A stretch of DNA of 51,442 nucleotides from Patescibacteria group bacterium (lineage in GTDB: Bacteria > Patescibacteriota > Patescibacteriia > Patescibacteriales > JAQTRU01): the NCBI GenBank assembly GCA_028711415.1, contig JAQTSG010000002.1:1-51442 (forward strand). Direction: 5' to 3'. The position numbers and the translations under genes were made by a program. The notes under the pieces are model-generated. The model saw only the letters and a list, made by a program, of their open reading frames with translations. It was not told the DNA's origin and ran no database searches. Below, one piece after another: positions 1-51,442 of this stretch. Position 1 is the first letter of the stretch; each line of letters opens with the position of its first letter.

Positions 1-1083
1 AACGGCGGAGTTGATATCGGTAAGCCCTGTATGACCAATGGCGATTGCAGCGGCGGCGTTCAGTGTCGAGATGACGCTCTGGGCACGACCGGAGATCCTC
101 CGGCCGACCCATTTTTATCAAGCGCAGACGTTATCGCTAATTATAATAGCGCTACCGGTTATATTACTGGGTGGGCGAAAATTTTGGTTTTAGGCGAGGA
201 CGGCTGGATAAATTTCGGAGATTTGGTTGAAGGCGAAACCACCTTTCCCTTAAACTTTCCCTTAAATTTTCCCCTCGTATTTGCCAGCGGCACATTCGGC
301 GTATCCATTGCGTCGAGTACGGGCGAATGGAGCGGTTGGGCCTGGAACGGAAATAATGCCGGCGAACCGGGGATTGGCTGGGTCAGTTTTAATTGTTTAG
401 ATACAGATAGTTGCGCGAGTTCGGATTATAAAGTTATTTCAATTTTAAATGAGGCGCCTACCGCAGTTAATTTATCCGCGCCGAACTGGAGTTATGAGCA
501 GGCCTGCGCTTTGGACGCTAGACGGGCGTTCCTGCGCTGGGAATTTAGCGACCCGGACGCGGGATCTTCCCAGGCCTCTTACCAAATTATTCTTAATGAT
601 AATAATAACCCCAACAGCCCCCTTATTGATACGGGTAAATTAGAGGGAGGGGCAAGCCAATATCCGCTTGGGCCGGATGACCTAGATTACAATGAGACTT
701 ATTATTGGTGGGTAAGAGTCTGGGACAATTTTAATGTCGCTTCAGAACTTATAGCTGGTCCATCGTTTACTACCTATGAGCACGAATTTCCCGAAGTGGC
801 TTTTACCTGGTTTACGGAAAATCCCAGCCGGGACGAGGAAGTAAAATTTACTGATAATTCAACTACTGATGGCGGAACGACTATAGCCAGCTTATTATGG
901 ACAGCTCCCGACGCTTCAATTAATGATCCGGCCACCTCTACGCCAATCATTATTTTCAATTCTTCCGGCAGCCAGTCAGTAACCCTGAAAGTAACTGACA
1001 GTGATGGCTATTATTGTAGTTTAACGGAAACTATAAACGCGAATGTGAATTTGCCGGGCTGGAAAGAAGTGAAACCCCGTTAG
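1..1083 (+). CDS. 5'-truncated secreted/surface protein with C-terminal PKD-like domain
   Basis: Frame 1 is open from base 1 (no stop before the ATG at 31), so the gene probably starts upstream of the window. Motifs: GW..GWVSFNC; YYWWVRVWD beta-sandwich signature; PKD-like VKFTDNS...VTLKVTDSDGYY. The TAG stop (1081-1083) lies inside a CCCCGTTAGAAAT repeat copy. Confidence 0.6.
   Translation, partial: NGGVDIGKPCMTNGDCSGGVQCRDDALGTTGDPPADPFLSSADVIANYNSATGYITGWAKILVLGEDGWINFGDLVEGETTFPLNFPLNFPLVFASGTFGVSIASSTGEWSGWAWNGNNAGEPGIGWVSFNCLDTDSCASSDYKVISILNEAPTAVNLSAPNWSYEQACALDARRAFLRWEFSDPDAGSSQASYQIILNDNNNPNSPLIDTGKLEGGASQYPLGPDDLDYNETYYWWVRVWDNFNVASELIAGPSFTTYEHEFPEVAFTWFTENPSRDEEVKFTDNSTTDGGTTIASLLWTAPDASINDPATSTPIIIFNSSGSQSVTLKVTDSDGYYCSLTETINANVNLPGWKEVKPR
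244..279 (+). repeat. 12-nt in-frame tandem repeat (tttcccttaaac x2 plus one degenerate unit) encoding FPLNFPLNFPLV
   Basis: Direct reading: tttcccttaaac / tttcccttaaat / tttcccctcgta. Confidence 0.8.
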
Positions 1084-1178
1084 AAATGACAAAGTTTTTG
1101 CCTTATCCTTTTCCCGAAGAACCAATTTTATTTGTCATTACTGCCATAAGCGGAGAGGATTTCTAACGGGGTGAAACC
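1069..1178. repeat. Inverted-repeat bracket copy A (CCCCGTTAGAAAT 1075-1087 / ATTTCTAACGGGG 1159-1171) with nested inverted repeat aatgacaaa/tttgtcatt (1085-1093 / 1131-1139)
   Basis: Both 13-mers are perfect reverse complements. Both are flanked by gtgaaacc. Located between the PKD protein stop and the pilin operon. Confidence 0.85.
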
Positions 1179-2705: not shown

Positions 2706-3281
2706 ATGTTAAAAAATATTTTAAAAAACAACAAGGGCGTGACTTTGCTGGAGATGATAGTTTCTGTGGCTATATTTTCCGAGGTTATGCTTTCGACTAT
2801 GGGGATTTTTCAGATAGTGATTGAGGGGCAGCGCAACGCTGTCGCTTCCCAAAATATTCAGGAGAGCATGCGATACGCTTTTGAAACTATGGCTAAAGAA
2901 ATCAGGACTGCGGTAGCGAGTAATTATGATTGCGAGTCCTTGTTCGGTTCGCCGCCGGCAGCGACCAATAAGGTTTTTAATACCACCATCAATAGCGAAG
3001 GTGATATCTTGTATTTTAAAAATAAAGAAGGCGTTTGCGTAGCTTATTATTTAGAAGATGAGACTTTAAAGATTACGAGGGGAGTAAACACCGCTTCCAC
3101 TGTTCCCGCCAAAATTAAAATTACTAATTTAAGTTTTAAAATTTCCGATGATTTAATCGGCGCTTTTCACAGTCAACAACCATTAGTGACCATGAAAATG
3201 GATATTGAAGCGGCGGGAAAGGCAATGCATAAGCAGGCGATGAAAATGCAGACGACCGTTTCCTCCCGATACTATGAGTAA
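2706..3281 (+). CDS. Minor pilin / pseudopilin (PilW/GspJ-like)
   Basis: NNKG|VTLLEMIVSVAIF with Glu at +5, then a hydrophobic helix. Confidence 0.7.
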   Translation: MLKNILKNNKGVTLLEMIVSVAIFSEVMLSTMGIFQIVIEGQRNAVASQNIQESMRYAFETMAKEIRTAVASNYDCESLFGSPPAATNKVFNTTINSEGDILYFKNKEGVCVAYYLEDETLKITRGVNTASTVPAKIKITNLSFKISDDLIGAFHSQQPLVTMKMDIEAAGKAMHKQAMKMQTTVSSRYYE

Positions 3282-3442
3282 TGAATTATTAGATAGTGAG
3301 AATTTTGATTTTATCTGATACCCTGATTCTCGATATCCTTTCCCCGATTGACTAATTACCCGTTTACTTTTAGAATATCAGTTTAAACAGGATATCAGGG
3401 AAAGGATAACAGTTTATCGGAATATTGGTCAAGTAATTTAAA

Positions 3443-3832
3443 ATGAAAAATTATATAAAAAAAATAAATAATAAAAGCGGTACGGCGCTTCTTTTAACTT
3501 TGCTGATTTTAACCAGTATTTTAGTGGTGGCTTTAGGGGCCGCCAGCTTAATTACTGCCGGTATAACTATAGGTCGGACGCAGGCGCAATCAACTAAAGC
3601 TTTTTTCGCCGCCGAAGCCGGAGCGGAACAAGCCCTGTGGGAAGTAAGAAAAAACAGCTATTCTATCCCCGGGGCTGATACTGACGATATTTTTTTAGGG
3701 AGCTTAAGTAACAGCAGCTCTTATGCTGTAGACCTTGCCGTTTCCCTTCCCCAGGTAACCTTTACCTCTACCGGCAGTTTCCGGCAAGTTAAAAGAAGCA
3801 TTGCCGTTGATTTTGAAGTTGATAATCCTTAA
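3443..3832 (+). CDS. PilX/GspK-like minor pilin (no Glu+5)
   Basis: NKSG|TALLLTLLILTSILVVALGAASL. Last gene of the pilin operon, as is typical for PilX/GspK-type proteins. Confidence 0.55.
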   Translation: MKNYIKKINNKSGTALLLTLLILTSILVVALGAASLITAGITIGRTQAQSTKAFFAAEAGAEQALWEVRKNSYSIPGADTDDIFLGSLSNSSSYAVDLAVSLPQVTFTSTGSFRQVKRSIAVDFEVDNP

Positions 3833-3836
3833 TTAT

Positions 3837-4007
3837 TTACCCCGTTAGAAATTTAGATAGAAATAGTTGGAATGTTTGTATTTAAAAGTTTTTAAAATGA
3901 ATTACCGCATGCTGATTTTATAGAGAATTTTGTTGAAAAACTGAAAGATTACCATCTAAAATATTATTTATGGAGAAAAAAGATAACAAAATTTCTAACG
4001 AGGTGGA
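3837..4007. repeat. Inverted-repeat bracket copy B around the ligA start (CCCCGTTAGAAAT 3840-3852 / ATTTCTAACGAGG 3991-4003)
   Basis: The upstream arm starts 5 nt after the stop of the preceding gene. The downstream arm lies in codons 8-12 of ligA. Confidence 0.85.
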
Positions 4008-6174
4008 CAAACAAGAAGCAAAAAAACGAATTGCTAAATTAAGGAAAGAGATTGACCATCATCGCTATCTTTATCATGTTTTGGATAAAATTGAAATCAG
4101 CGACGCGGCTTTAGATAGTCTAAAAAATGAACTCTTTAAATTGGAAATGGCCAATCCTGAATTTATTACGCCCGATTCGCCCACCCAAAGAGTGGGTGGA
4201 AAACCTTTAGACAAATTCATTAAAGTAGTCCACTCTCGGCCGATGATGTCTTTGTTTGACGCTTTTTCTCCGGAAGATATGAAAGACTGGGAGGAAAGGA
4301 TTAAAAAATTAATCCCCCTTATCCCCTTTATCAAGGGGGAGACAATCCCCCTTCGTCCCCCCTCAAAAGGGGGATATGGGGAGTTAGATTATTACTGCGA
4401 ATTAAAACTGGACGGGTTAGCCATGACTTTAAAATATAAAAATGGGATTTTTATAGAGGGAGCGACCAGGGGAGACGGGAAAGTCGGTGAGGATGTAACC
4501 CAGAATTTAAAAACGATTGAAAGCATACCTTTGCGGCTAAGAGAGCCGGAAGAAGGTGAGCTAAAAAAAATTGGTTTAGACGTTAGGCAGATAAAATTAG
4601 TCAGGACTGCTTTAGAAAAGGGAGAAATAGAAGTGCGGGGAGAAGCGGTAATGACCAGACAAGTCTTTAACGAGCTTAATAAAAAATATAAAAAAGAAGG
4701 CAAACCTCAACTGGCTAATCCGCGCAACGGCGCGGCCGGTTCAATCAGGCAACTTGACCCGAAACTGGCGGCCGAGAGAAAATTAAGTTTTTATGTTTAT
4801 GCTTTAGCGACTGATTTTGGCTTAAAAAATCATGAGGAGGAACATAAATTGGCCGAAGTTTTAGGATTTAAAGTATTGAAAGAAAATAAATACTGCCGAG
4901 ATTTATCCGAAGTTTATAAGTTTCATGATTATTGGGAAAAAAACAGAGAAAAAATGCCTTTTGAATGCGACGGAGTAGTTATAGTGGTAAATAATTTAGG
5001 TTTGTGGCCGGTCCTCGGTATTGTCGGCAAGGGGCCGCGTTATATGATGGCCTATAAGTTCGCGGCCTTGGAAGCAACGACGAAGATAAGAGAAGTCGTC
5101 TGGCAGGTAGGCCGGACCGGAATTTTAACTCCGACGGCCGTGCTGGATCCGGCGCCGGTCGGCGGCGTAACTATTACTCACGCTACTTTACATAATATGG
5201 ATGAGATAAAACGTTTGGGCATAAAAGTCGGGGATACGGTTATCATCCAGCGGGCCGGAGACGTAATTCCGAAAGTGGTGAAAGTTTTACCTAATTTGCG
5301 CTCTGGCGAAGAGAAAGAAATTAAGGTGCCGAAAAAATGCCCAATGTGCGAAAGCGAAGTTACCAAAGTGCCGGGAGAAGTCGCTTATCGTTGCTCCGGC
5401 ACAAATTGTTACGCGGTTAATTTACGGCGCCTAGCCCATTGGGTTTCTAAAAATGCCGTTGATATTGATGGCTTGGGTCCGAAAATTATTGAACAGCTGG
5501 TAAAAGAAGGATTAGTAAGGGACGTAAGCGATTTTTATATTTTAACAGTCGGCGATTTAGAGCCCCTGGAAAGGTTTGCCGAGAAATCCGCGGATAATTT
5601 AGTTAAGGCGATTAATGACAGAAAAAAAATAGATTTACCTCGTTTTATTTATGGCTTAGGGATTAGACACGTGGGCGAAGAATCGGCGATATTATTAAGT
5701 AAGAAATTATCACCGCCAAGGCGGGACGGGGAAGTAAAAAGTAATAAGATTTCTGATATAGTAAAGAAATTTAAGATGTTGTCTTTAGAGGAGCTGGAAA
5801 AGTTAGAGGATGTGGGGCCGATTGTGGCTAGAAGTATTTATGACTGGTGGCACGATAAAAAAAATTTGGAGTTGCTGGAAAAGTTAGAAAAAAACGGAGT
5901 GGAAATTGTGTTAAACAAAACACAAGGTGCGAAGCAGATTTTAACAGGTAAAACCTTTGTTTTAACCGGAACTTTAAACAGTTTGACAAGGGATGAGGCA
6001 AAAGCTAAGATAAGGGAGCTGGGTGGAGATGTTTCCTCGTCTGTAAGTAAAAATACTGATTATGTGGTGGCTGGGGCTGAACCGGGAAGCAAATACGATA
6101 AAGCAATAAAGCTTAAAGTTAAGGTGATTGGGGAGGATGAGCTTCTTAGGTTCCTAACGAATCAACGAATTTAA
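3970..6174 (+). CDS. ligA: NAD-dependent DNA ligase
   Basis: HHRYLYHV N-terminal Ia domain; adenylation motif CELKLDGLA; Zn finger CPMCESEV...CSGTNC; HhH region; BRCT GKTFVLTGTL. An alternative in-frame GTG start lies at 4003. Carries two repeat-derived in-frame insertions and a repeat-encoded C-terminal TNQRI. Confidence 0.95.
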   Translation: MEKKDNKISNEVDKQEAKKRIAKLRKEIDHHRYLYHVLDKIEISDAALDSLKNELFKLEMANPEFITPDSPTQRVGGKPLDKFIKVVHSRPMMSLFDAFSPEDMKDWEERIKKLIPLIPFIKGETIPLRPPSKGGYGELDYYCELKLDGLAMTLKYKNGIFIEGATRGDGKVGEDVTQNLKTIESIPLRLREPEEGELKKIGLDVRQIKLVRTALEKGEIEVRGEAVMTRQVFNELNKKYKKEGKPQLANPRNGAAGSIRQLDPKLAAERKLSFYVYALATDFGLKNHEEEHKLAEVLGFKVLKENKYCRDLSEVYKFHDYWEKNREKMPFECDGVVIVVNNLGLWPVLGIVGKGPRYMMAYKFAALEATTKIREVVWQVGRTGILTPTAVLDPAPVGGVTITHATLHNMDEIKRLGIKVGDTVIIQRAGDVIPKVVKVLPNLRSGEEKEIKVPKKCPMCESEVTKVPGEVAYRCSGTNCYAVNLRRLAHWVSKNAVDIDGLGPKIIEQLVKEGLVRDVSDFYILTVGDLEPLERFAEKSADNLVKAINDRKKIDLPRFIYGLGIRHVGEESAILLSKKLSPPRRDGEVKSNKISDIVKKFKMLSLEELEKLEDVGPIVARSIYDWWHDKKNLELLEKLEKNGVEIVLNKTQGAKQILTGKTFVLTGTLNSLTRDEAKAKIRELGGDVSSSVSKNTDYVVAGAEPGSKYDKAIKLKVKVIGEDELLRFLTNQRI
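4312..4381. repeat. GC-rich composite palindromic insertion kept in-frame inside ligA
   Basis: Outer arms atccccctt (4312-4320) / aagggggat (4367-4375). Inner hairpins cccctt-tatc-aagggg (4323-4338) and ccccct-caaa-aggggg (4358-4373). Encodes PLIPFIKGETIPLRPPSKGGYG just upstream of the KxDG motif, where E. coli LigA (from memory) has about 14 fewer residues. Confidence 0.75.
5711..5727. repeat. 17-nt GC-rich palindromic element caccgccaaggcgggac (copy 1, inside ligA)
   Basis: Identical 17-mer at 37137-37153. Contains the hairpin ccgcc-aa-ggcgg. Read here as SPPRRD. Confidence 0.85.
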
Positions 6175-8531: not shown

Positions 8532-8645
8532 GGAGAGGTCGCCTAGTGGCCGATGGCGCACGCTTGGAAAGCGTGTATACCGCAAGGTATCGAGGGTTCG
8601 TGGGGTCATTCGACCCCACGCCCAGTCGAATGACTGGGCGAATCC
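8532..8645 (+). pseudogene. Truncated tRNA-Ser(GGA) copy: 5' 69 nt identical to the intact gene, then a 40-nt insertion in the T-loop, then aatcc; no 3' T-stem or acceptor strand
   Basis: 8532-8600 is identical base for base to 8915-8983. No CCTCTCC-type 3' acceptor strand follows. Confidence 0.85.
8601..8640 (+). other. Double hairpin block inserted in the T-loop of the truncated tRNA copy
   Basis: tggggtc-attc-gacccca (8601-8618) and gcccagtc-gaat-gactgggc (8620-8639). The apical segments gtcattcgac and gtcgaatgac are reverse complements of each other, so an alternative fold exists. Confidence 0.7.
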
Positions 8646-8650
8646 ACGCT

Positions 8651-8929
8651 ATGTATTATGTTTATATATTATTACAAAATGATGGTAATTTATATAAGGG
8701 TAGCACGGATAATTTGAAACAAAGAATTGAGGAACACAATGCCGGCAAAGTTATTTCCACTAAACATAAAAGACCCTTAAAATTGATCCATTATGAAGGT
8801 TATTTGTTTAAGGAAGATGCCCAAAGAAGGGAAAAGTATTTAAAGACAACCGAGGGCAGGAGGTTTTTGAGACAACAATTAAAAATTTTTTATATAAAGT
8901 ATAATATCAAATCCGGAGAGGTCGCCTAG
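8651..8929 (+). CDS. GIY-YIG nuclease family protein (small YhbQ/YazA-like, COG2827 type)
   Basis: MYYVYILLQNDGNLYKGSTDNLKQRIEEHNAGK...REKYLK. The track ORF start (8546) lies inside the tRNA fragment and is rejected. The stop TAG (8927-8929) lies 15 nt inside the intact tRNA-Ser. Confidence 0.85.
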   Translation: MYYVYILLQNDGNLYKGSTDNLKQRIEEHNAGKVISTKHKRPLKLIHYEGYLFKEDAQRREKYLKTTEGRRFLRQQLKIFYIKYNIKSGEVA

Positions 8930-8999
8930 TGGCCGATGGCGCACGCTTGGAAAGCGTGTATACCGCAAGGTATCGAGGGTTCGAATCCCTCTCTCTCCG
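8915..8999 (+). tRNA. tRNA-Ser (anticodon GGA), class II with long variable arm
   Basis: Manual fold: acceptor GGAGAGG/TCTCTCC (one G-U); 3-bp D stem; anticodon stem CACGC/GCGTG with loop TTGGAAA; variable arm ATACC-GCAA-GGTAT; T arm GAGGG-TTCGAAT-CCCTC; discriminator G. CCA is not encoded. Confidence 0.9.
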
Positions 9000-9022
9000 C
9001 TTTTAAACCACCCCCATTTTTA

Positions 9023-9031
9023 TGTTATAAT
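9023..9031 (+). promoter_or_regulatory. Extended -10 promoter element TGTTATAAT
   Basis: TGnTATAAT consensus read directly, 42 nt upstream of the AbrB-like gene. No clear -35 box. Confidence 0.45.
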
Positions 9032-9059
9032 TTAATTACAGAGTTTGCTCTGTAATTAA
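9032..9059. promoter_or_regulatory. Perfect 12-bp-arm palindrome ttaattacagag-tttg-ctctgtaattaa directly after the -10, candidate operator or 5' UTR hairpin
   Basis: The arms are exact reverse complements. Located between the putative -10 and the ATG at 9073. Confidence 0.5.
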
Positions 9060-9072
9060 TTGTTTTTACCTT

Positions 9073-9264
9073 ATGGCGAGGAAGAAATTAGAAGAAAGAA
9101 ATATAAGAAAATTGGCTAAGGTTGGCGGAAAAAGAACCTATAGCTTAACTTTGTCGATTGAGGCAATAAGGGAATTTGGCTGGAAGGAAGGCCAGAAAGT
9201 GGTTATTGAAGTGGACAAAAAAGGGCAAAGGTTTATAATAAAAGACTGGAAAGATAAATTATAA
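9073..9264 (+). CDS. AbrB/SpoVT/MazE-like small DNA-binding protein
   Basis: 63 aa. YSLTLSIEAIREFGWKEGQKVVIEVD resembles the swapped-hairpin (looped-hinge) beta-barrel motif. The assignment is by pattern only. Confidence 0.5.
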   Translation: MARKKLEERNIRKLAKVGGKRTYSLTLSIEAIREFGWKEGQKVVIEVDKKGQRFIIKDWKDKL

Positions 9265-9280
9265 TAATTAAATAAATGTA

Positions 9281-9421
9281 TTCACCCCGTTAGAAATCTC
9301 GCAAAAAATAAACGGGTAAAAAACATCAGCCAGAAGCTGATCCGCCTTCGGCGGAAAATATTAAAAAATTAGTTAGTATATTATTATGGAGAAAGAAAAC
9401 AAAAAAATTTCTAATGGGGTA
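9281..9421. repeat. Inverted-repeat bracket copy C around the gmd start (CCCCGTTAGAAAT 9285-9297 / ATTTCTAATGGGG 9407-9419), enclosing two small hairpins
   Basis: Internal hairpins atcagc-cagaa-gctgat (9325-9341) and tccgcc-ttc-ggcgga (9341-9355). Confidence 0.85.
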
Positions 9422-10378
9422 AAAAAAGCTTTAATTACGGGCATAACCGGGCAGGACGGCTCATATTTGGCGGAACTGCTGCTGGCTAAGAGTTATCGGG
9501 TTTTTGGTTTGGAAAGAAGATCCTCAACAAAAAATCGGACCAATATAGAGAAGATTGAAAAAAATATAAATTTTATCTCTGGCGACTTAACCGACCAGCA
9601 TTCTCTAACCCGCGCCATCGCTTCAGCTGAGCCGGATGAAGTTTATAATCTGGCGGCGCAAAGTTTTGTTAAGGAATCCTGGGAGCAGCCGGAATATACG
9701 GGCGACGTTACCGGTCTGGGCGCTTTAAGGGTTTTAGAAGCCATCCGGCAGGTCAATCCGAAAATAAAATATTACCAGGCGTCTTCTTCGGAGATGTTCG
9801 GCCGGGTGCAGGAAACGCCGCAGAGTGAAAAGACGCCTTTCTATCCCCGCAGCCCTTATGGCGTAGCTAAATTATATGCCCATTGGATAACGGTTAATTA
9901 CCGTGAGTCTTATAATATTTTTACCTGCAGCGGGATTTTATTTAACCATGAATCAGAACGTCGGGGCTTAGAATTTGTTACCAGGAAAATTACCAACGCC
10001 GCGGCTAAAATAAAATTAGGTTTAGAGAATAAATTATATTTAGGGAATTTAGACGCTAAAAGAGATTGGGGATACGCGCCGGAGTACGCGGAAGCGATGT
10101 GGATGATGCTCCAGCGAGAAGAACCGGAAGATTTTGTTATTGCCACGGGCGAGGCCCACAGCGTGAAAGATTTTGTGGAGGCGGCTTTTGCCGTAGTGGA
10201 TTTAGATTGGAAGAAATACGTAGAGATTGATGATTGTTTTAAACGCCCCGCCGAGGTTTACTCCTTGGTGGGGGACGCCAGCAAAGCTAAAACTAAATTG
10301 GGCTGGCGGCCGAAGGTTAATTTCTCTGAATTGGTAAAAATTATGGTAGAAGCTGATTTAAAAAAATTAAAGAAATAA
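9386..10378 (+). CDS. gmd: GDP-mannose 4,6-dehydratase
   Basis: [19 protein letters not shown] Rossmann N-terminus, SSSEMFG, YGVAKLY (catalytic YxxxK), NHESERRG. Confidence 0.93.
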
Positions 10379-14809: not shown

Positions 14810-14900
14810 CTTATCGCCGGTAAATTATTTAGCCGTTTGGCTTTATGGCGGCCCTTTTATTTATCCCGTTATTTGTTATTAAAGTTAAAAAATAACCTAT

Positions 14901-15053
14901 GAACCCCATTAGAAGTTCGGTAGATGTCTTCTGTCAAGGGGAAAGATAAGTGTAATTAGGTACAATTATGAAAAAAAATGATAAAATTTCTAATTTAATT
15001 AAAACTTCTAACCCCGTTAGAAATAGATTTCTAAGCGGGGCTAACGGGGTGAA
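14901..15053. repeat. Inverted-repeat bracket copy D plus a complete palindrome inside the annotated GT4 ORF
   Basis: Degenerate upstream arm CCCCATTAGAAGT (14904-14916); ATTTCTAAT (14986-14994); then CCCCGTTAGAAAT (15012-15024) directly followed by ATTTCTAAGCGGGG-CTAACGGGG (15027-15049). Confidence 0.85.
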
Positions 15054-19168: not shown

Positions 19169-20212
19169 ATGAGGAAAAAATATGACCAAAACATATTAAA
19201 TACAAGGTTTGATAAAGAATCCGGGAGCTGGAAAAAACTTTATGAAACGGATAAATCAAGTCTATTTAAATATAATAATAAAAAATACCGCCAACAGTAC
19301 GCGCTGGAAATGATCGGAGAAGGTTCCGGGTTAATTTTAGATTTAGGCTGTGGGTCGGGCAGTTTTTTTGAACTATTGGGAAAATTGGGCTACCGGGTTG
19401 TTGGTCTTGATTCTTCTTCCGGTATGGTTGAATTAGCCGCCGCTGAAGCGCGGAGATTGAATAATGGCCTGGTTATCCGGGGTAACGCGCTAAAACTTCC
19501 GTTTGCCGATAGCGCATTTAACGCCCTGTTAGCCGTGGGGTTGCTTGAATATTTTCCGGCCGATGAGGATTTTTTGGAAAAAATAAAAAAGATAATGAAG
19601 CCCGGCGCTAAAATAGTTATAACTCTAAGAAATGCCCTGTGTTTTGAAAGAAAACTCTGGAAGTTTTACGGGAAAATTGGCCTAAATAAATTTCAAGCCG
19701 ATTATTACTATCGGGAACATAATCCGATAAAATTTGAATCCCTGCTTAAATCAATGGGATTTCAAAATATTCAAAGGCGTTTTTGCCATTTTTATCCTTT
19801 TCCCTGGCCGATAAGCAAACTGGCCGGACCATTAAACTCTTTTTTCGCCAATAAGATGGAAAAATGGTTTTCCGAAAGTTTTATAAATTTTTTGGGCTCA
19901 ACCTATTTAGTCTCCTTTACCGCTCCCAGCAGCGGGTTAGGGGGGCAAAAGACAGAACCAAAAGATATATCGAATTATTTAAAATGTCCGGTGACGGGAC
20001 AGGCCGTTAAGAAAGCTGATTCTTTCGTTCTTAACAAATTAAATAAAAAAATTTCCAGCGGAGAATTGTATAATCGGGGAGGGAAGAAAATAAAAGAAAA
20101 ACTGGATGAAGCTTATATTACGGCGGATAAAAAAATAATTTATCCCGTTAAAAATAGGGCGCCAATATTTTTAGAAGAAGAGTCTTTTAATTTTTACGCT
20201 GATTTATTATGA
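19169..20212 (+). CDS. Class I SAM-dependent methyltransferase with C-terminal Trm112-like domain
   Basis: LDLGCGSG motif I. C-terminal LKCPVTGQ...IYPVKNRAPIFLEEE resembles Trm112/DUF343. Confidence 0.7.
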   Translation: MRKKYDQNILNTRFDKESGSWKKLYETDKSSLFKYNNKKYRQQYALEMIGEGSGLILDLGCGSGSFFELLGKLGYRVVGLDSSSGMVELAAAEARRLNNGLVIRGNALKLPFADSAFNALLAVGLLEYFPADEDFLEKIKKIMKPGAKIVITLRNALCFERKLWKFYGKIGLNKFQADYYYREHNPIKFESLLKSMGFQNIQRRFCHFYPFPWPISKLAGPLNSFFANKMEKWFSESFINFLGSTYLVSFTAPSSGLGGQKTEPKDISNYLKCPVTGQAVKKADSFVLNKLNKKISSGELYNRGGKKIKEKLDEAYITADKKIIYPVKNRAPIFLEEESFNFYADLL

Positions 20213-29385: not shown

Positions 29386-29426
29386 ATTGACACCTATTGA
29401 CACCCATTGACACCCCGCGGTATAAT
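29386..29426 (+). promoter_or_regulatory. Three 10-bp-phased ATTGACACC iterons overlapping a TTGACA-18 nt-TATAAT promoter
   Basis: ATTGACACC at 29386, 29396 and 29406. The -35 TTGACA (29397-29402) pairs with TATAAT (29421-29426). Confidence 0.55.
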
Positions 29427-29432
29427 AATAAT

Positions 29433-29684
29433 ATGAATAACGACGAAATAAAATCAAATGCGGTTTACACTACCCTGGAGGCCCAAGAGCTATTGAAAAT
29501 AAGCAATAGCACTATTAAACGTCTGCTTAAAAAGGGGCTAATAAAAGCCAATAAGGTTGGAGGCCAATATCGTATTTTAGGTAAGGAAATATTGCGTTTA
29601 GTGTCTCCGGAGGTAGAAAAGAAAGCCGTAAAGTCATATCTGGGCCTGAAACAAAAGGTTGTGGATAAAATCAATAGATGGTAA
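29433..29684 (+). CDS. Excisionase-family (HTH_17/MerR-like) DNA-binding protein
   Basis: YTTLEAQELLKISNSTIKRLLKKGLIKANKVGGQYRI matches the excisionase-type helix-turn-helix. The track start at 29397 is a TTG inside the promoter repeats and is rejected. Confidence 0.7.
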   Translation: MNNDEIKSNAVYTTLEAQELLKISNSTIKRLLKKGLIKANKVGGQYRILGKEILRLVSPEVEKKAVKSYLGLKQKVVDKINRW

Positions 29685-34838: not shown

Positions 34839-35924
34839 ATGGGTTTTAAAATCATTAAATTAACCGAAGACAAAAATCAAGACTGGGATAAATTTTGTTT
34901 AGAGAGCAGGGATGCCTGGTTTTGGCAGACGAGCGGCTGGCTTGAATATATCTTAAATTATCAGCCGTCTCTGGCTACGGAAAATTTTAGCTTTTTTGTC
35001 CTTCGCGGCGATAAAATCAGGGCGATAGTACCCTTAACGCGCGAGACGGTAAGAACGGATAAGGGGAAGGTTTATGAATTTTCTTTCGGTGGCCGGGGTA
35101 TTCCGGCGCCGGCCCTTGATAATTCTTTAAACCGGTCCGACAGGGAATTGGTTTACAAGTTAATTTTTTCCGAAGTAGATCGTTTGGCCGTTGCCAACGG
35201 AGTTAAACGCGCCGTTTTCAGGCAAGTGCCGATTTCTGACAGTTTTTTAAATAATAAATTCTCCTTTAATTATTTTTTGAAATATGGTTTCATCGACGCA
35301 TCTTTAAATACTTGCCTGATTAATCTGGGGAAAACTGAAGATGAATTATTGCATGATTTAAGGCGAAATCATCTGCGTAGCATTAAAAAAGCCAATAATC
35401 TTAAAATTGTAATTTATAATGAGAAAAATATTACGGAAGAAATTTTTTTGGCTTACAAGAAAATGCATTATTTAGCCGCCGGCAAACAAACCCGGCCTGA
35501 TAAAACCTTTAATCTTATGTATGAATGGGCAAGGGCTGGATTGGGTTTTTTGGCGGTTGCTGAAATTTCTGGCCGGCCAGTCGGTTTTGAATATTATTCA
35601 GTATATAAAGATAACGTTTATGGGTTTTCCGCCGCCAATGACCCGGAAGTTGAGAAAGACTTGCCTATCCGCCATGCTTTGGAATGGGAGGCAATCTTAT
35701 GGATGAAACATCAGGGGTTCCATTTTTATGAAATTGGTCAGCAGCAATACGGTCCTTTGCTTTATGATTTTCCCGATCAGAAAAAATTAAATATTTCTCA
35801 TTTTAAAAAGGGTTTTGGCGGCTTTACCGCGCCTCTGTTTATTGGCGAAAAATATTATGATAAGCAATACTTTTTAAAAATGTATCAGGAGAGAATAAAT
35901 AAATACGCGGATTTGATAAAGTAA
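34839..35924 (+). CDS. FemAB-family / GNAT-fold acyl(aminoacyl)transferase-like protein
   Basis: About 360 aa, two-lobed. FWQTSGWLEY and LRRNHLRSIKKA resemble FemAB-type proteins. Pattern-level call only. Confidence 0.45.
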   Translation: MGFKIIKLTEDKNQDWDKFCLESRDAWFWQTSGWLEYILNYQPSLATENFSFFVLRGDKIRAIVPLTRETVRTDKGKVYEFSFGGRGIPAPALDNSLNRSDRELVYKLIFSEVDRLAVANGVKRAVFRQVPISDSFLNNKFSFNYFLKYGFIDASLNTCLINLGKTEDELLHDLRRNHLRSIKKANNLKIVIYNEKNITEEIFLAYKKMHYLAAGKQTRPDKTFNLMYEWARAGLGFLAVAEISGRPVGFEYYSVYKDNVYGFSAANDPEVEKDLPIRHALEWEAILWMKHQGFHFYEIGQQQYGPLLYDFPDQKKLNISHFKKGFGGFTAPLFIGEKYYDKQYFLKMYQERINKYADLIK

Positions 35925-35930
35925 AATTAT

Positions 35931-36050
35931 TCACCCGGTTAGAGATTCGGTTAGCTATAAAGAATAACAAAATTTTTAGCCGGAAAATATTTTTAAAAAG
36001 ATAAAACATTATTATGGAGAAAAAAGAAAAAAAAATTTCTAACGGAGTGA
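35931..36050. repeat. Inverted-repeat bracket copy E (CCCGGTTAGAGAT 35934-35946 / ATTTCTAACGGAG 36035-36047)
   Basis: The upstream arm starts 7 nt after the preceding stop. The downstream arm lies in codons 8-12 of the oxidoreductase. Confidence 0.8.
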
Positions 36051-36994
36051 ATAAAAATAGCAAAATTTTAATAATCGGATTTGGTTCTATCGGCCAGCGG
36101 CATCGCAAGAATTTACAAAGATTAGGTTTTAGAAACGTGTATGTTTATGATATTGATAAAGAAAGAATTAAGAATTATGAATTAAGAATTAAGAATATAG
36201 ATGTAGATAATTTAAAACAGTTTAATATTATTTTTGTTTGCAATCCGAACAATCTGCATATAAAGACCGCTCTCTTGGCGGCCAAAGCCGGGTGCCACCT
36301 TTTTATTGAAAAGCCCTTATCAAATCAGATGAAGGACGTAAATATTTTACAGAGAATTTGCCAGCGTAAAAGATTAATTAATATGGTGGCCTGCAATATG
36401 CGCTTTCATCCCGGCCCGCGATTTATTAAAAACTACTTAGATAAAAATAAGTTAGGCAAAGTTTATGGCATTCAACTGCAAGCCGGTTATTACTTGCCGT
36501 ATTGGCGGCCGGAACAAGATTACCGAAAGGGCTATGCCGCCAAAGCCAAAACCGGCGGAGGCATTATTTTGGATGGCGGAATTCATAATTTTGATTTACT
36601 TTTCTGGCTAAACAATTTTTCTTCAGTAAATAAAGCCGAATTAATCTATGACAAGATAAGCGATTTGCAAATAGAGACTGAAGATAGTTTTATCGCCTCT
36701 TTTAAATTTAAAAATAAAGTATTGGGGTCGGTTATCGGCGACTATTTGCAGAGGTCATATTCCTGGACCAGCAAAATAGTCGGCGCCAAAGGCAATCTTG
36801 AATGGGACTTTAAGGAAAATATTGTTTGGCTGATTAATGAAAAAGGGAAAAAAATACTGAAACAATTTAAAAATTATGATTCAAATGAAATGTATTTGGA
36901 TGAATTCAGATATTTTATGAAGCAGGTTGAGAGAAAGCAAAAAACCTTCAATGACATAGCCAGAGCGGCCGAAATTTTAAAAAATTTAAGATAA
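36014..36994 (+). CDS. Gfo/Idh/MocA family oxidoreductase
   Basis: KILIIGFGSIGQRH Rossmann motif and EKPL motif (FIEKPLS). An alternative in-frame GTG start lies at 36047. Confidence 0.8.
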   Translation: MEKKEKKISNGVNKNSKILIIGFGSIGQRHRKNLQRLGFRNVYVYDIDKERIKNYELRIKNIDVDNLKQFNIIFVCNPNNLHIKTALLAAKAGCHLFIEKPLSNQMKDVNILQRICQRKRLINMVACNMRFHPGPRFIKNYLDKNKLGKVYGIQLQAGYYLPYWRPEQDYRKGYAAKAKTGGGIILDGGIHNFDLLFWLNNFSSVNKAELIYDKISDLQIETEDSFIASFKFKNKVLGSVIGDYLQRSYSWTSKIVGAKGNLEWDFKENIVWLINEKGKKILKQFKNYDSNEMYLDEFRYFMKQVERKQKTFNDIARAAEILKNLR

Positions 36995-51061: not shown

Positions 51062-51442
51062 ATGCTTAAATTTACAGAAAAAATTTCTAATTTAATCCAT
51101 AAATCTCTAAGAAACCCTAAAAAATTTCTTCTGCTTATGGTTGAATTTAAAAAAATTATTATTTTAAATATGGCCATCAAAAAAGCGCGCCGTGACAAGA
51201 GGGTGGTTGTATTGGTTGAATTAAGGTCAACCAATGAATTTTTTTTCTTAAAACCAGTTTTAGAAATTTTACATAAAAATAAGGCACTAATGATTTTTAT
51301 GTCGCATGGCCGGTTTACGGAGCAAAGCCGGCTTTATTATTCTTTACGCAATCTAATTAAGTCTGCCTTTAGCCGTCAGACTCCCGCTCTGGTTAGTCTA
51401 TTTTGGAAAAATAGTTTTAATTATTTGGATTTTTATATCAAT
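51062..51442 (+). CDS. 3'-truncated ORF of unknown function (runs off the window), not in the ORF track
   Basis: Manual translation from the ATG at 51062 gives 127 codons with no stop (MLKFTEKISNLIHKSLRNPKKF...VVVLVELRSTNEFFFLKPVLEIL...). The N-terminus carries a degenerate copy of the ATTTCTAAT leader. The antisense ORF 50998-51234 is rejected. Confidence 0.5.
   Translation, partial: MLKFTEKISNLIHKSLRNPKKFLLLMVEFKKIIILNMAIKKARRDKRVVVLVELRSTNEFFFLKPVLEILHKNKALMIFMSHGRFTEQSRLYYSLRNLIKSAFSRQTPALVSLFWKNSFNYLDFYIN

Follow-up and report, generated by a model that had tools for sequence, protein, structure and literature searches.

A mobile inverted repeat at bacterial gene starts that would rebuild the start codon and probably supplies an in-frame ATG of its own

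We analysed a 51,442-nucleotide stretch of DNA (the window; contig JAQTSG010000002.1, assembly GCA_028711415.1) from a Patescibacteria group bacterium, in which three forward-strand genes, ligA (start at 3970), gmd (9386) and that of a Gfo/Idh/MocA oxidoreductase (36014), open with nearly the same letters, of the form ATGGAGAAA..AAAATTTCTAAYGRRGT. Over the first 42 nt ligA and the oxidoreductase gene share 36 positions, gmd and the oxidoreductase gene 35, and ligA and gmd 33, against a mean of 15.4 +/- 3.4 and a maximum of 27 in the 703 other pairs of gene starts in the window. Directly 5' of all three starts stands ATTATT(T), and as codon 12 ligA (4003-4005) and the oxidoreductase gene (36047-36049) have GTG where gmd (9419-9421) has GTA. 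An initial annotation of this DNA had remarked on the likeness (with the counts of 36 and 35), on the ATTATT(T) and on codon 12, all of which are borne out by the sequence, and had held the three proteins to be unrelated. Pfam agrees, assigning them to three unrelated enzymes with the onset of the conserved domain at residues 15-17 in Gmd and the oxidoreductase and at residue 18 (the Ia domain) in LigA.

The stretch that codes for Ile-Ser-Asn-Gly-Val in these starts, ATTTCTAACGGGG followed by (TGAA), belongs to an inverted repeat, of which it forms the right arm. The left arm, CCCCGTTAGAAAT, is its reverse complement and lies 70-140 nt upstream, 7-16 nt past the stop codon of the preceding gene; the initial annotation had missed this partner, its interval at gmd beginning at 9281, the left arm. 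The window copies described here are all on the forward strand. That at ligA spans 3836..4007, with the left terminal inverted repeat (TIR) at 3840-3852, 7 nt past the upstream stop (3830-3832), the ATG at 3970-3972 and the right TIR ATTTCTAACGAGG at 3991-4003. The gmd copy (9281..9423) has its left TIR at 9285-9297, two small internal hairpins at about 9325-9356, the ATG at 9386-9388 and the right TIR ATTTCTAATGGGG at 9407-9419, and the oxidoreductase copy (35930..36051) has the left TIR CCCGGTTAGAGAT at 35934-35946, 9 nt past the upstream stop (35922-35924), the ATG at 36014-36016 and the right TIR ATTTCTAACGGAG at 36035-36047. In the window there are ten matches to the 17-mer arm, where 0.27 would be expected, and the 13-nt TIR pair is present in five elements. 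Across the family elements measure 29-280 bp, the arms being separated by as little as 3 nt (a bare hairpin) and by as much as about 250 nt, and related contigs carry about 4.8 arms per 10 kb; two metagenome contigs, L281 (13.5 kb) and L300 (9.7 kb), each hold 16 arms, or about eight elements, which is very dense for a streamlined genome.

Two further copies in the window carry a target-site duplication (TSD), and a third lies nested in one of them. A complete element without the leader occupies 1070..1176, the left TIR CCCCGTTAGAAAT at 1075-1087 and the right TIR ATTTCTAACGGGG at 1159-1171 being flanked by TGAAA, read directly at 1070-1074 and 1172-1176. It sits in the last codons of the open reading frame (ORF) 31..1083, the gene of an Ig/PKD-domain protein, which now stops at a TAG inside the left TIR and has changed its C-terminus from ..EVKPE* to ..EVKPR*; the empty site would read GTG AAA CCA GAA TAG. 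At a glycosyltransferase gene a copy at 14899..15053 lies between TGAA at 14900-14903 and TGAA at 15050-15053, with the old ATG at 14899-14901, the left TIR CCCCATTAGAAGT at 14904-14916, an internal ATG at 14968 and a GTG at 15049-15051. Its right TIR is split into ACTTCTAA (15004-15011) and CGGGG (15045-15049) by a compact copy of 29 nt (CCCCGTTAGAAAT at 15012-15024, loop AG, ATTTCTAAGCGGGG at 15027-15040) that has a duplication of its own, CTAA at 15008-15011 and 15041-15044, and so spans 15008..15044. This nested copy shows directly that one site has been hit by transposition repeatedly.

The initial annotation had counted five copies at gene starts. Those at 3970, 9386 and 36014 stand, and that at 14968 is genuine and likewise holds an ATG inside the element; it is of a different build, with its right arm broken by the nested copy and only 17-19 of the first 42 nt shared. 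The fifth, at 51062..51103, falls away, as its 23-27 of 42 identities are at background level and it has neither the GGGG nor a partner arm, having only AAAATTTCTAATTTAAT in common, and that only with the 14968 leader.

The same arm is widespread in public genomes. More than 119 loci of species-representative genomes contain the exact 17-mer, in many classes of Patescibacteria and in Omnitrophota, Planctomycetota, Desulfobacterota/Thermodesulfobacteriota, Nitrospirota, Stahlbacteria and uncultured Gammaproteobacteria, and 110 of 120 public exact right arms have a left arm within 300 nt. A scan that specified only the two 13-nt arms, and was therefore unbiased as to flanks, gave 116 elements, and in 65 of them the arms are bordered by a perfect 4-nt direct repeat; permuted flanks gave 12.0 +/- 3.1 (at most 23), and flanks shifted by 1-6 nt gave 0-4. 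The duplicated tetramers vary (TAAA, TGAA, CTCA, TCAA, TCCA, CCCA, TTAA, CACG and others), so the flanking repeats are duplicated target and not part of the element. Duplications in the family are of 4-5 nt, mostly T[A/G]AA. Interiors differ by lineage and are AT-rich in Patescibacteria, while deltaproteobacterial/Desulfobacterota metagenome-assembled genomes hold a conserved element of about 121 bp with the same 13-nt ends, a GC-rich interior (aatgccccgctgctctgcagcgggg...) and a TTTA/TAAA duplication, a G preceding TAAA in most copies (L203, L213, L223 at 3921-4015, L227, L237, L244, L250, L257 and others). The repeat is thus a small transposable element of the miniature inverted-repeat type (MITE), with no transposase gene of its own. 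A Patescibacterial 'MEK' subfamily has in addition ATG GAG AAA and further A-rich codons 33 nt (11 codons) 5' of the GTG and in the same frame.

Orthologous sites that lack the element indicate where it came to rest. The closest Gmd orthologue, 87% identical (locus L120), has no repeat and reads ..ATATT ATG AAA AAA GCC TTA ATC.., where gmd in the window reads ..GGG GTA AAA AAA GCT TTA ATT.., and in this alignment codon 12 of gmd occupies the position of the ancestral ATG, at which the arm consensus is GTG. Gmd proteins begin without the leader, 1-5 residues before ALITG, at 78 of 80 orthologue loci, the other two lacking the anchoring motif, and the 120 closest LigA proteins (63-82% identical) all begin M-[DN]-K-x-[EQ]-[AI]-K-K-R-I, again with no leader. 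The relatives of ligA that keep the gene order of the window (pilin / PilX-like / ligA / gatC / gatA; L316, L318 and L319) have no element and read ...TTTATGGATAAAC (..TTT ATG GAT AAA C..), where the window has GAGG-TGGACAAAC (..GAGG TG GAC AAA C..), its GTG aligning with the orthologous ATG. The right arm thus ends exactly at the native ATG position, and the element is mobile and multicopy.

These comparisons leave practically no room for the leader being ordinary conserved protein sequence, an N-terminal signal or tag inherited with each gene. Nothing speaks for it except the shared peptide itself; orthologues lack the leader as just described, synonymous positions are conserved at the nucleotide level, and a reverse-complement copy lies upstream, so that we count it as refuted. 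The orthologue comparison called for in the initial annotation thus falls on the side of its claim that the likeness resides in a nucleotide element and not in protein homology.

The geometry of the target site suggests how insertion at a start codon could be survived. In all 19 copies with a duplicated TGAA the letter before it is A, so that the site reads ATGAA, and 18 of the 19 lie at a gene start. Insertion into A|TGAA would split the start codon, leaving behind the A, often visible as ATGAA-CCCC, and the terminal G of the arm together with the duplicated TG would give GTG-AA, a start codon rebuilt in phase. Gene starts of the ATGAA type make up 16 of 49 in the window, so such targets are common, and the association with start codons may reflect true targeting or survivorship. 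Copies that have no upstream ATG, from several phyla, bear out the rebuilt codon, since in them the arm GTG opens the canonical N-termini of HrcA, AtpD and LigA and of the ribosomal proteins L1 (MKHGKKYRAAAEK) and L36 (MKVRASAKKMCKKCK).

When the flank is TRAA, the right arm has a single open frame, that of Ile-Ser-Asn-Gly-Val, the other two being closed by a TAA within the arm and a TGA or TAA at the junction with the TGAA/TAAA flank. The initial annotation had argued that five copies in frame with the gene downstream would by chance have a probability of about (1/3)^5. This argument is invalid, because only in-frame copies could be noticed and because the 33-nt phase from ATG to GTG was inherited from one master copy, so that the five are not independent events.

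Whether ribosomes begin at the ATG inside the element is a separate matter from its mobility. In gmd that ATG is the only ATG, GTG or TTG upstream of KKALITG, the sole alternative being a rare ATT at codon 8; this upholds the view of the initial annotation that the gene has no other plausible start. The gene product is full length, 87% identical to L120, and spans the whole Pfam GDP_Man_Dehyd model, and we infer from the sequence that gmd depends on the repeat ATG as its only canonical start, its GTG having decayed to GTA; an exact-protein look-up of the leader-bearing Gmd gave no record. About a dozen genes elsewhere are in the same position, with a codon that is no start (GTA, GTT, GCA, GCG or GGC) in place of the GTG and only the in-frame ATG of the repeat upstream. 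They are unrelated, encoding a GT2 glycosyltransferase, Adk, DegV, an HMA (heavy-metal) ATPase, an IscS/cysteine-desulfurase-like protein, AroQ, L19, TrxB, LeuRS and others. ATGs up to 45 nt upstream of gene-linked arms are found in frame 61 times and in the two other frames 17 and 18 times, at distances of 2-9 whole codons. In a metagenome scan MEK[KE]xxKISNGV heads about 20 unrelated proteins at 40 loci, among them Dus, a Wzx flippase, Adk, AtpA, TrxB, a prepilin, an epimerase, a reverse transcriptase, RluD and an HMA ATPase. With the duplications and the filled and empty sites, this spread supports the portability proposed in the initial annotation.

It could be held instead that the repeat is real and its ATG and leader are untranslated, the true starts being the arm GTGs, gmd beginning at the GTA or ATT or having been recently inactivated, and the long ORFs being gene-calling extensions through the single open frame of the arm. 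The exact alignment of the ligA GTG with the orthologous ATG fits this, as do the many copies elsewhere that lack an upstream ATG and must use GTG, and some in-frame arms sit just 5' of a native ATG (L047, L074, L109 and L202). We nevertheless regard it as unlikely, given the intact and well conserved gmd, the dozen or so independent housekeeping genes that lost the GTG and kept the in-frame repeat ATG, the three- to four-fold enrichment of in-frame ATGs with lengths varying by whole codons, and the nested insertion at 15012-15044, which adds 33 nt in frame and free of stops and so keeps the frame open.

The setting of the ATG is like that of other starts in the window. A Shine-Dalgarno motif in a plausible position is missing from all of the approximately 49 gene starts, the single nominal hit (8546) overlapping a tRNA gene, and the organism apparently initiates without Shine-Dalgarno pairing. 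Starts in the window stand in AT-rich ..ataat ATG contexts (e.g. 10494, 11972, 17103 and 37805), as does the ATG of the element. The leader peptide is itself probably functionless, a by-product that is tolerated; it stands even before a prepilin leader, which is cleaved off.

Folding may favour the ATG of the element over the GTG. The two arms of the gmd copy are predicted to pair (-38.4 kcal/mol, z = -5), which would place the GTG/GTA codon in the stem and the ATG and seven further, A-rich codons, unpaired, in the open loop. A transcript with both arms would thus bury the GTG and leave the ATG exposed, so that initiation may be favoured at the loop ATG. A promoter-like sequence, TTGAAA-18-TAAAAT (10 of 12 positions), ends 7 nt before the ligA ATG and would, if active, give a leaderless mRNA; about one such match is expected by chance.

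Such hairpins could also mean that the inverted repeat is a regulatory device, either an invertible promoter or start segment (phase variation) or, at the operon junctions of a surface-polysaccharide locus, an RNA hairpin by which translation is gated or at which RNase III cuts. The intergenic region and the start codon do lie between the arms, in front of a large cluster of glycosylation genes, hairpin predictions are strong (z about -5), and both promoters and inversion have been reported for Correia elements (PMC10969869). Yet arms also precede ligA and genes of ribosomal proteins, aminoacyl-tRNA synthetases and ATP synthase, which are unlikely to be phase-variable, mismatched arm positions within the window are without mutual compensation, there is neither an adjacent recombinase gene nor an Rfam family match, and the TSDs and empty sites show transposition. 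We consider a regulatory device improbable, more so than an untranslated leader. Four further candidates were rejected: a structured RNA or riboswitch, as the Rfam covariance models matched only tRNAs in the window and eight element-bearing loci and the associated genes are too diverse; an integron attC site, as the core-like GTTAGAA/TTCTAAC are in the opposite order to R''/R'; an operator pair of a conserved regulator or parS/CIRCE-like palindromes, as arm spacing varies over 3-250 nt and TSDs are present; and an intrinsic terminator, as no T-run follows the compact hairpins. Complementarity to 16S rRNA, considered over an 8-mer (GGGGTGAA), was likewise set aside.

We therefore think it probable that a mobile repeat with TIRs and TSDs splits start codons, rebuilds them as GTG and brings an in-frame ATG of its own that ribosomes use. 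Ribosomes starting there would make a protein with an 11-residue N-terminal extension, and once the ATG was in use the GTG would be free to decay, as in gmd. The portable 5' cassette of the initial annotation survives in part in this proposal: a mobile repeat does bring an ATG, which in gmd is the only usable canonical start, as that annotation had it, but the unit is a two-armed MITE spanning the intergenic region and not a mere leader.

Several observations weigh against the proposal. We infer translation from the element ATG from sequence rather than observe it. The three leader-bearing copies in the window have no TSD, and their flanks (TTTA/TGGA at ligA, TTCA/TAAA at gmd and TTCA/TGAA at the oxidoreductase gene, the left ones at 3836-3839, 9281-9284 and 35930-35933) extend the inverted repeat; the TTCA/TGAA type of flank makes up about 12% of the flank-unbiased set. 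Quasi-palindrome template switching may have turned the left TGAA into TTCA, or the left duplication may have been lost along with the native spacer. At ligA the 169-nt intergenic region differs wholly from that of the relatives and, the entire spacer having been replaced, the comparison of filled and empty site is not a clean one. The promoter-like match of the ligA copy is absent from the gmd and oxidoreductase copies. Copies are related by descent, and the counts given here are not counts of independent events. The 13-nt end, identical across phyla, does not fit easily either, and neither a transposase nor an autonomous copy was found in approximately 300 loci, collection-wide scans for arm pairs reaching up to 600 bp. 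Arm pairs 300-5000 nt apart enclose housekeeping genes and no autonomous element, unpaired arms adjoin UvrC, FtsK and similar genes and no transposase, and when the 870 ORFs from the approximately 300 loci that reach 250 aa or more were clustered all against all, only housekeeping families emerged.

An identical 13-nt TIR across distant phyla points to a widely shared transposase. A more far-reaching idea, which we put forward tentatively and think rather doubtful, is that a horizontally shared or host-conserved transposase keeps one TIR family (CCCCGTTAGAAAT) the same in Patescibacteria, Omnitrophota, Planctomycetota, Desulfobacterota, Nitrospirota and other phyla, and that in the Patescibacterial lineage it has become a 5' module that homes to start codons, splitting ATG-AA, regenerating GTG and adding a Shine-Dalgarno-independent, possibly leaderless and self-promoted ATG together with an insulating hairpin. 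A sizeable fraction of the genes of these ultra-small genomes, essential ones included, would then be expressed and N-terminally tagged from mobile DNA, and hosts may rewire expression in this way.

Phage as the vehicle of spread was considered and rejected, since only one IMG/VR contig (L435, IMGVR_UViG_3300038429_000794) has true elements, other 14-mer matches being partnerless and looking like chance. That contig has two-armed copies at 3245-3324 and about 3960-3990, one compact and one with a 54-nt interior. Not every match to the arm is an element: an exact 17-mer at about 821-837 of locus L086 lies by chance inside a long ORF (..QIFVISNGVNTRYYANN..), which we take to carry a type I restriction-enzyme R-subunit motif, and in the window an arm-like match at 20139-20155 is coding sequence (..IIYPVKNRAPIF..).

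Elements of this kind have precedents. According to Delihas (2011, PMC3184786), REP2 of Neisseria meningitidis and IR-A/IR-B of Borrelia plasmids are repeats just 5' of genes that carry a promoter, ribosome-binding site and ATG, and REP2 can also be an open frame joined to small ORFs. They resemble the window repeat as repeat-borne 5' expression cassettes; they are not described there as TIR/TSD transposons, nor is any splitting or rebuilding of start codons, and they use a ribosome-binding site and are genus-restricted, whereas the window genome initiates apparently without Shine-Dalgarno sequences and its TIR is found in many phyla. The RPE of Rickettsia, likewise of a small reduced genome, are palindromic repeats of 100-150 bp that lie in frame in unrelated, often essential genes and are apparently translated, according to PMC10969869 (Ogata 2000 cited there). 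They differ in lying inside coding sequences, in encoding a conserved peptide of 30-50 residues and supplying no start codon, and in having neither the clear TIR/TSD structure nor the cross-phylum spread of the window family. Correia elements have a TA duplication, TIRs of about 26 bp and an IHF (integration host factor) site, and are not known for start codons or peptide leaders as their defining trait. The window repeat departs from them, with a duplication of 4-5 nt of the T-N-N-A type and an unrelated TIR. These Neisseria elements (CREE/NEMIS) are MITEs of 100-155 bp with TIRs, mostly just 5' of genes, which carry promoters, are co-transcribed and form a hairpin (PMC10969869). Pneumococcal BOX/RUP and Bordetella BRE are small repeats that extend the annotated 5' or 3' ends of genes or are fused in frame (Croucher 2011; Hot 2011; both cited by PMC3184786). 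They are sporadic fusions, for which no systematic targeting or regeneration of start codons and no built-in ATG is described.

The kind of element is thus already known from REP2, IR-A/B, RPE, Correia and the 5'-extending repeats. No description of this repeat was found in the papers searched by sequence and by topic, none of which has the arm sequence, and the family appears undescribed. What appears new is the family itself, the geometry that splits and regenerates start codons, the terminal repeat shared across phyla and, in genomes that lack Shine-Dalgarno sequences, a built-in in-frame ATG on which genes have come to depend. As to ancestry, IS1380 and piggyBac elements have CC(C) ends, short terminal repeats (13 nt in piggyBac) and duplications of 4-5 nt (IS1380) or TTAA (piggyBac), of which the CCCC ends, 13-nt TIR and 4-5-nt T-N-N-A duplication of the window repeat are reminiscent. 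The IS1380 family or piggyBac superfamily is a possible parent; the TIR has no obvious match to the ends of ISEcp1 or piggyBac.

The remainder of the window offers some observations of its own. Almost all of the window from gmd onwards (9386-51000) is a same-strand series of glycosyltransferases, methyltransferases, sugar-nucleotide enzymes and large membrane proteins, a surface-glycan locus with three repeat copies at its internal operon boundaries. In a pilin-like gene at 1283-1500 the N-terminal region is unusually long and holds two prepilin-like motifs (..NLAGFTLLNS.. and ..STGFTLIELL..), Pfam N_methyl matching only from residue 39. Before another pilin-like gene (2706) an intergenic AT-rich cluster of overlapping inverted repeats lies at 2461-2651 (AAATTTTAAATTTTAA / TTAAAATTTAAAATT, arms about 130-150 nt apart), and a short direct repeat, TTGACACCCATTGACACCCCG, lies at 29397-29420, at the listed TTG start of ORF 29397..29684. 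Between gatA and an AbrB-like ORF (9073..9264) is an 85-nt tRNA with a long variable arm (8915-8999); the ORFs 8546..8929 and 8929..9055, which overlap it, are unlikely to be genes.

If the ATG of the repeat is indeed used, many proteins of the candidate phyla radiation, among them DNA ligase, adenylate kinase, ATP synthase, thioredoxin reductase and aminoacyl-tRNA synthetases, would carry at their N-terminus a peptide that a transposon end encodes, and some would now depend on it. This bears on the annotation of gene starts in thousands of metagenome-assembled genomes and on the choice of start codon in genomes without Shine-Dalgarno sequences. It bears also on how a selfish element may persist at high density in a streamlined genome of about 1 Mb, by inserting where it rebuilds what it breaks.

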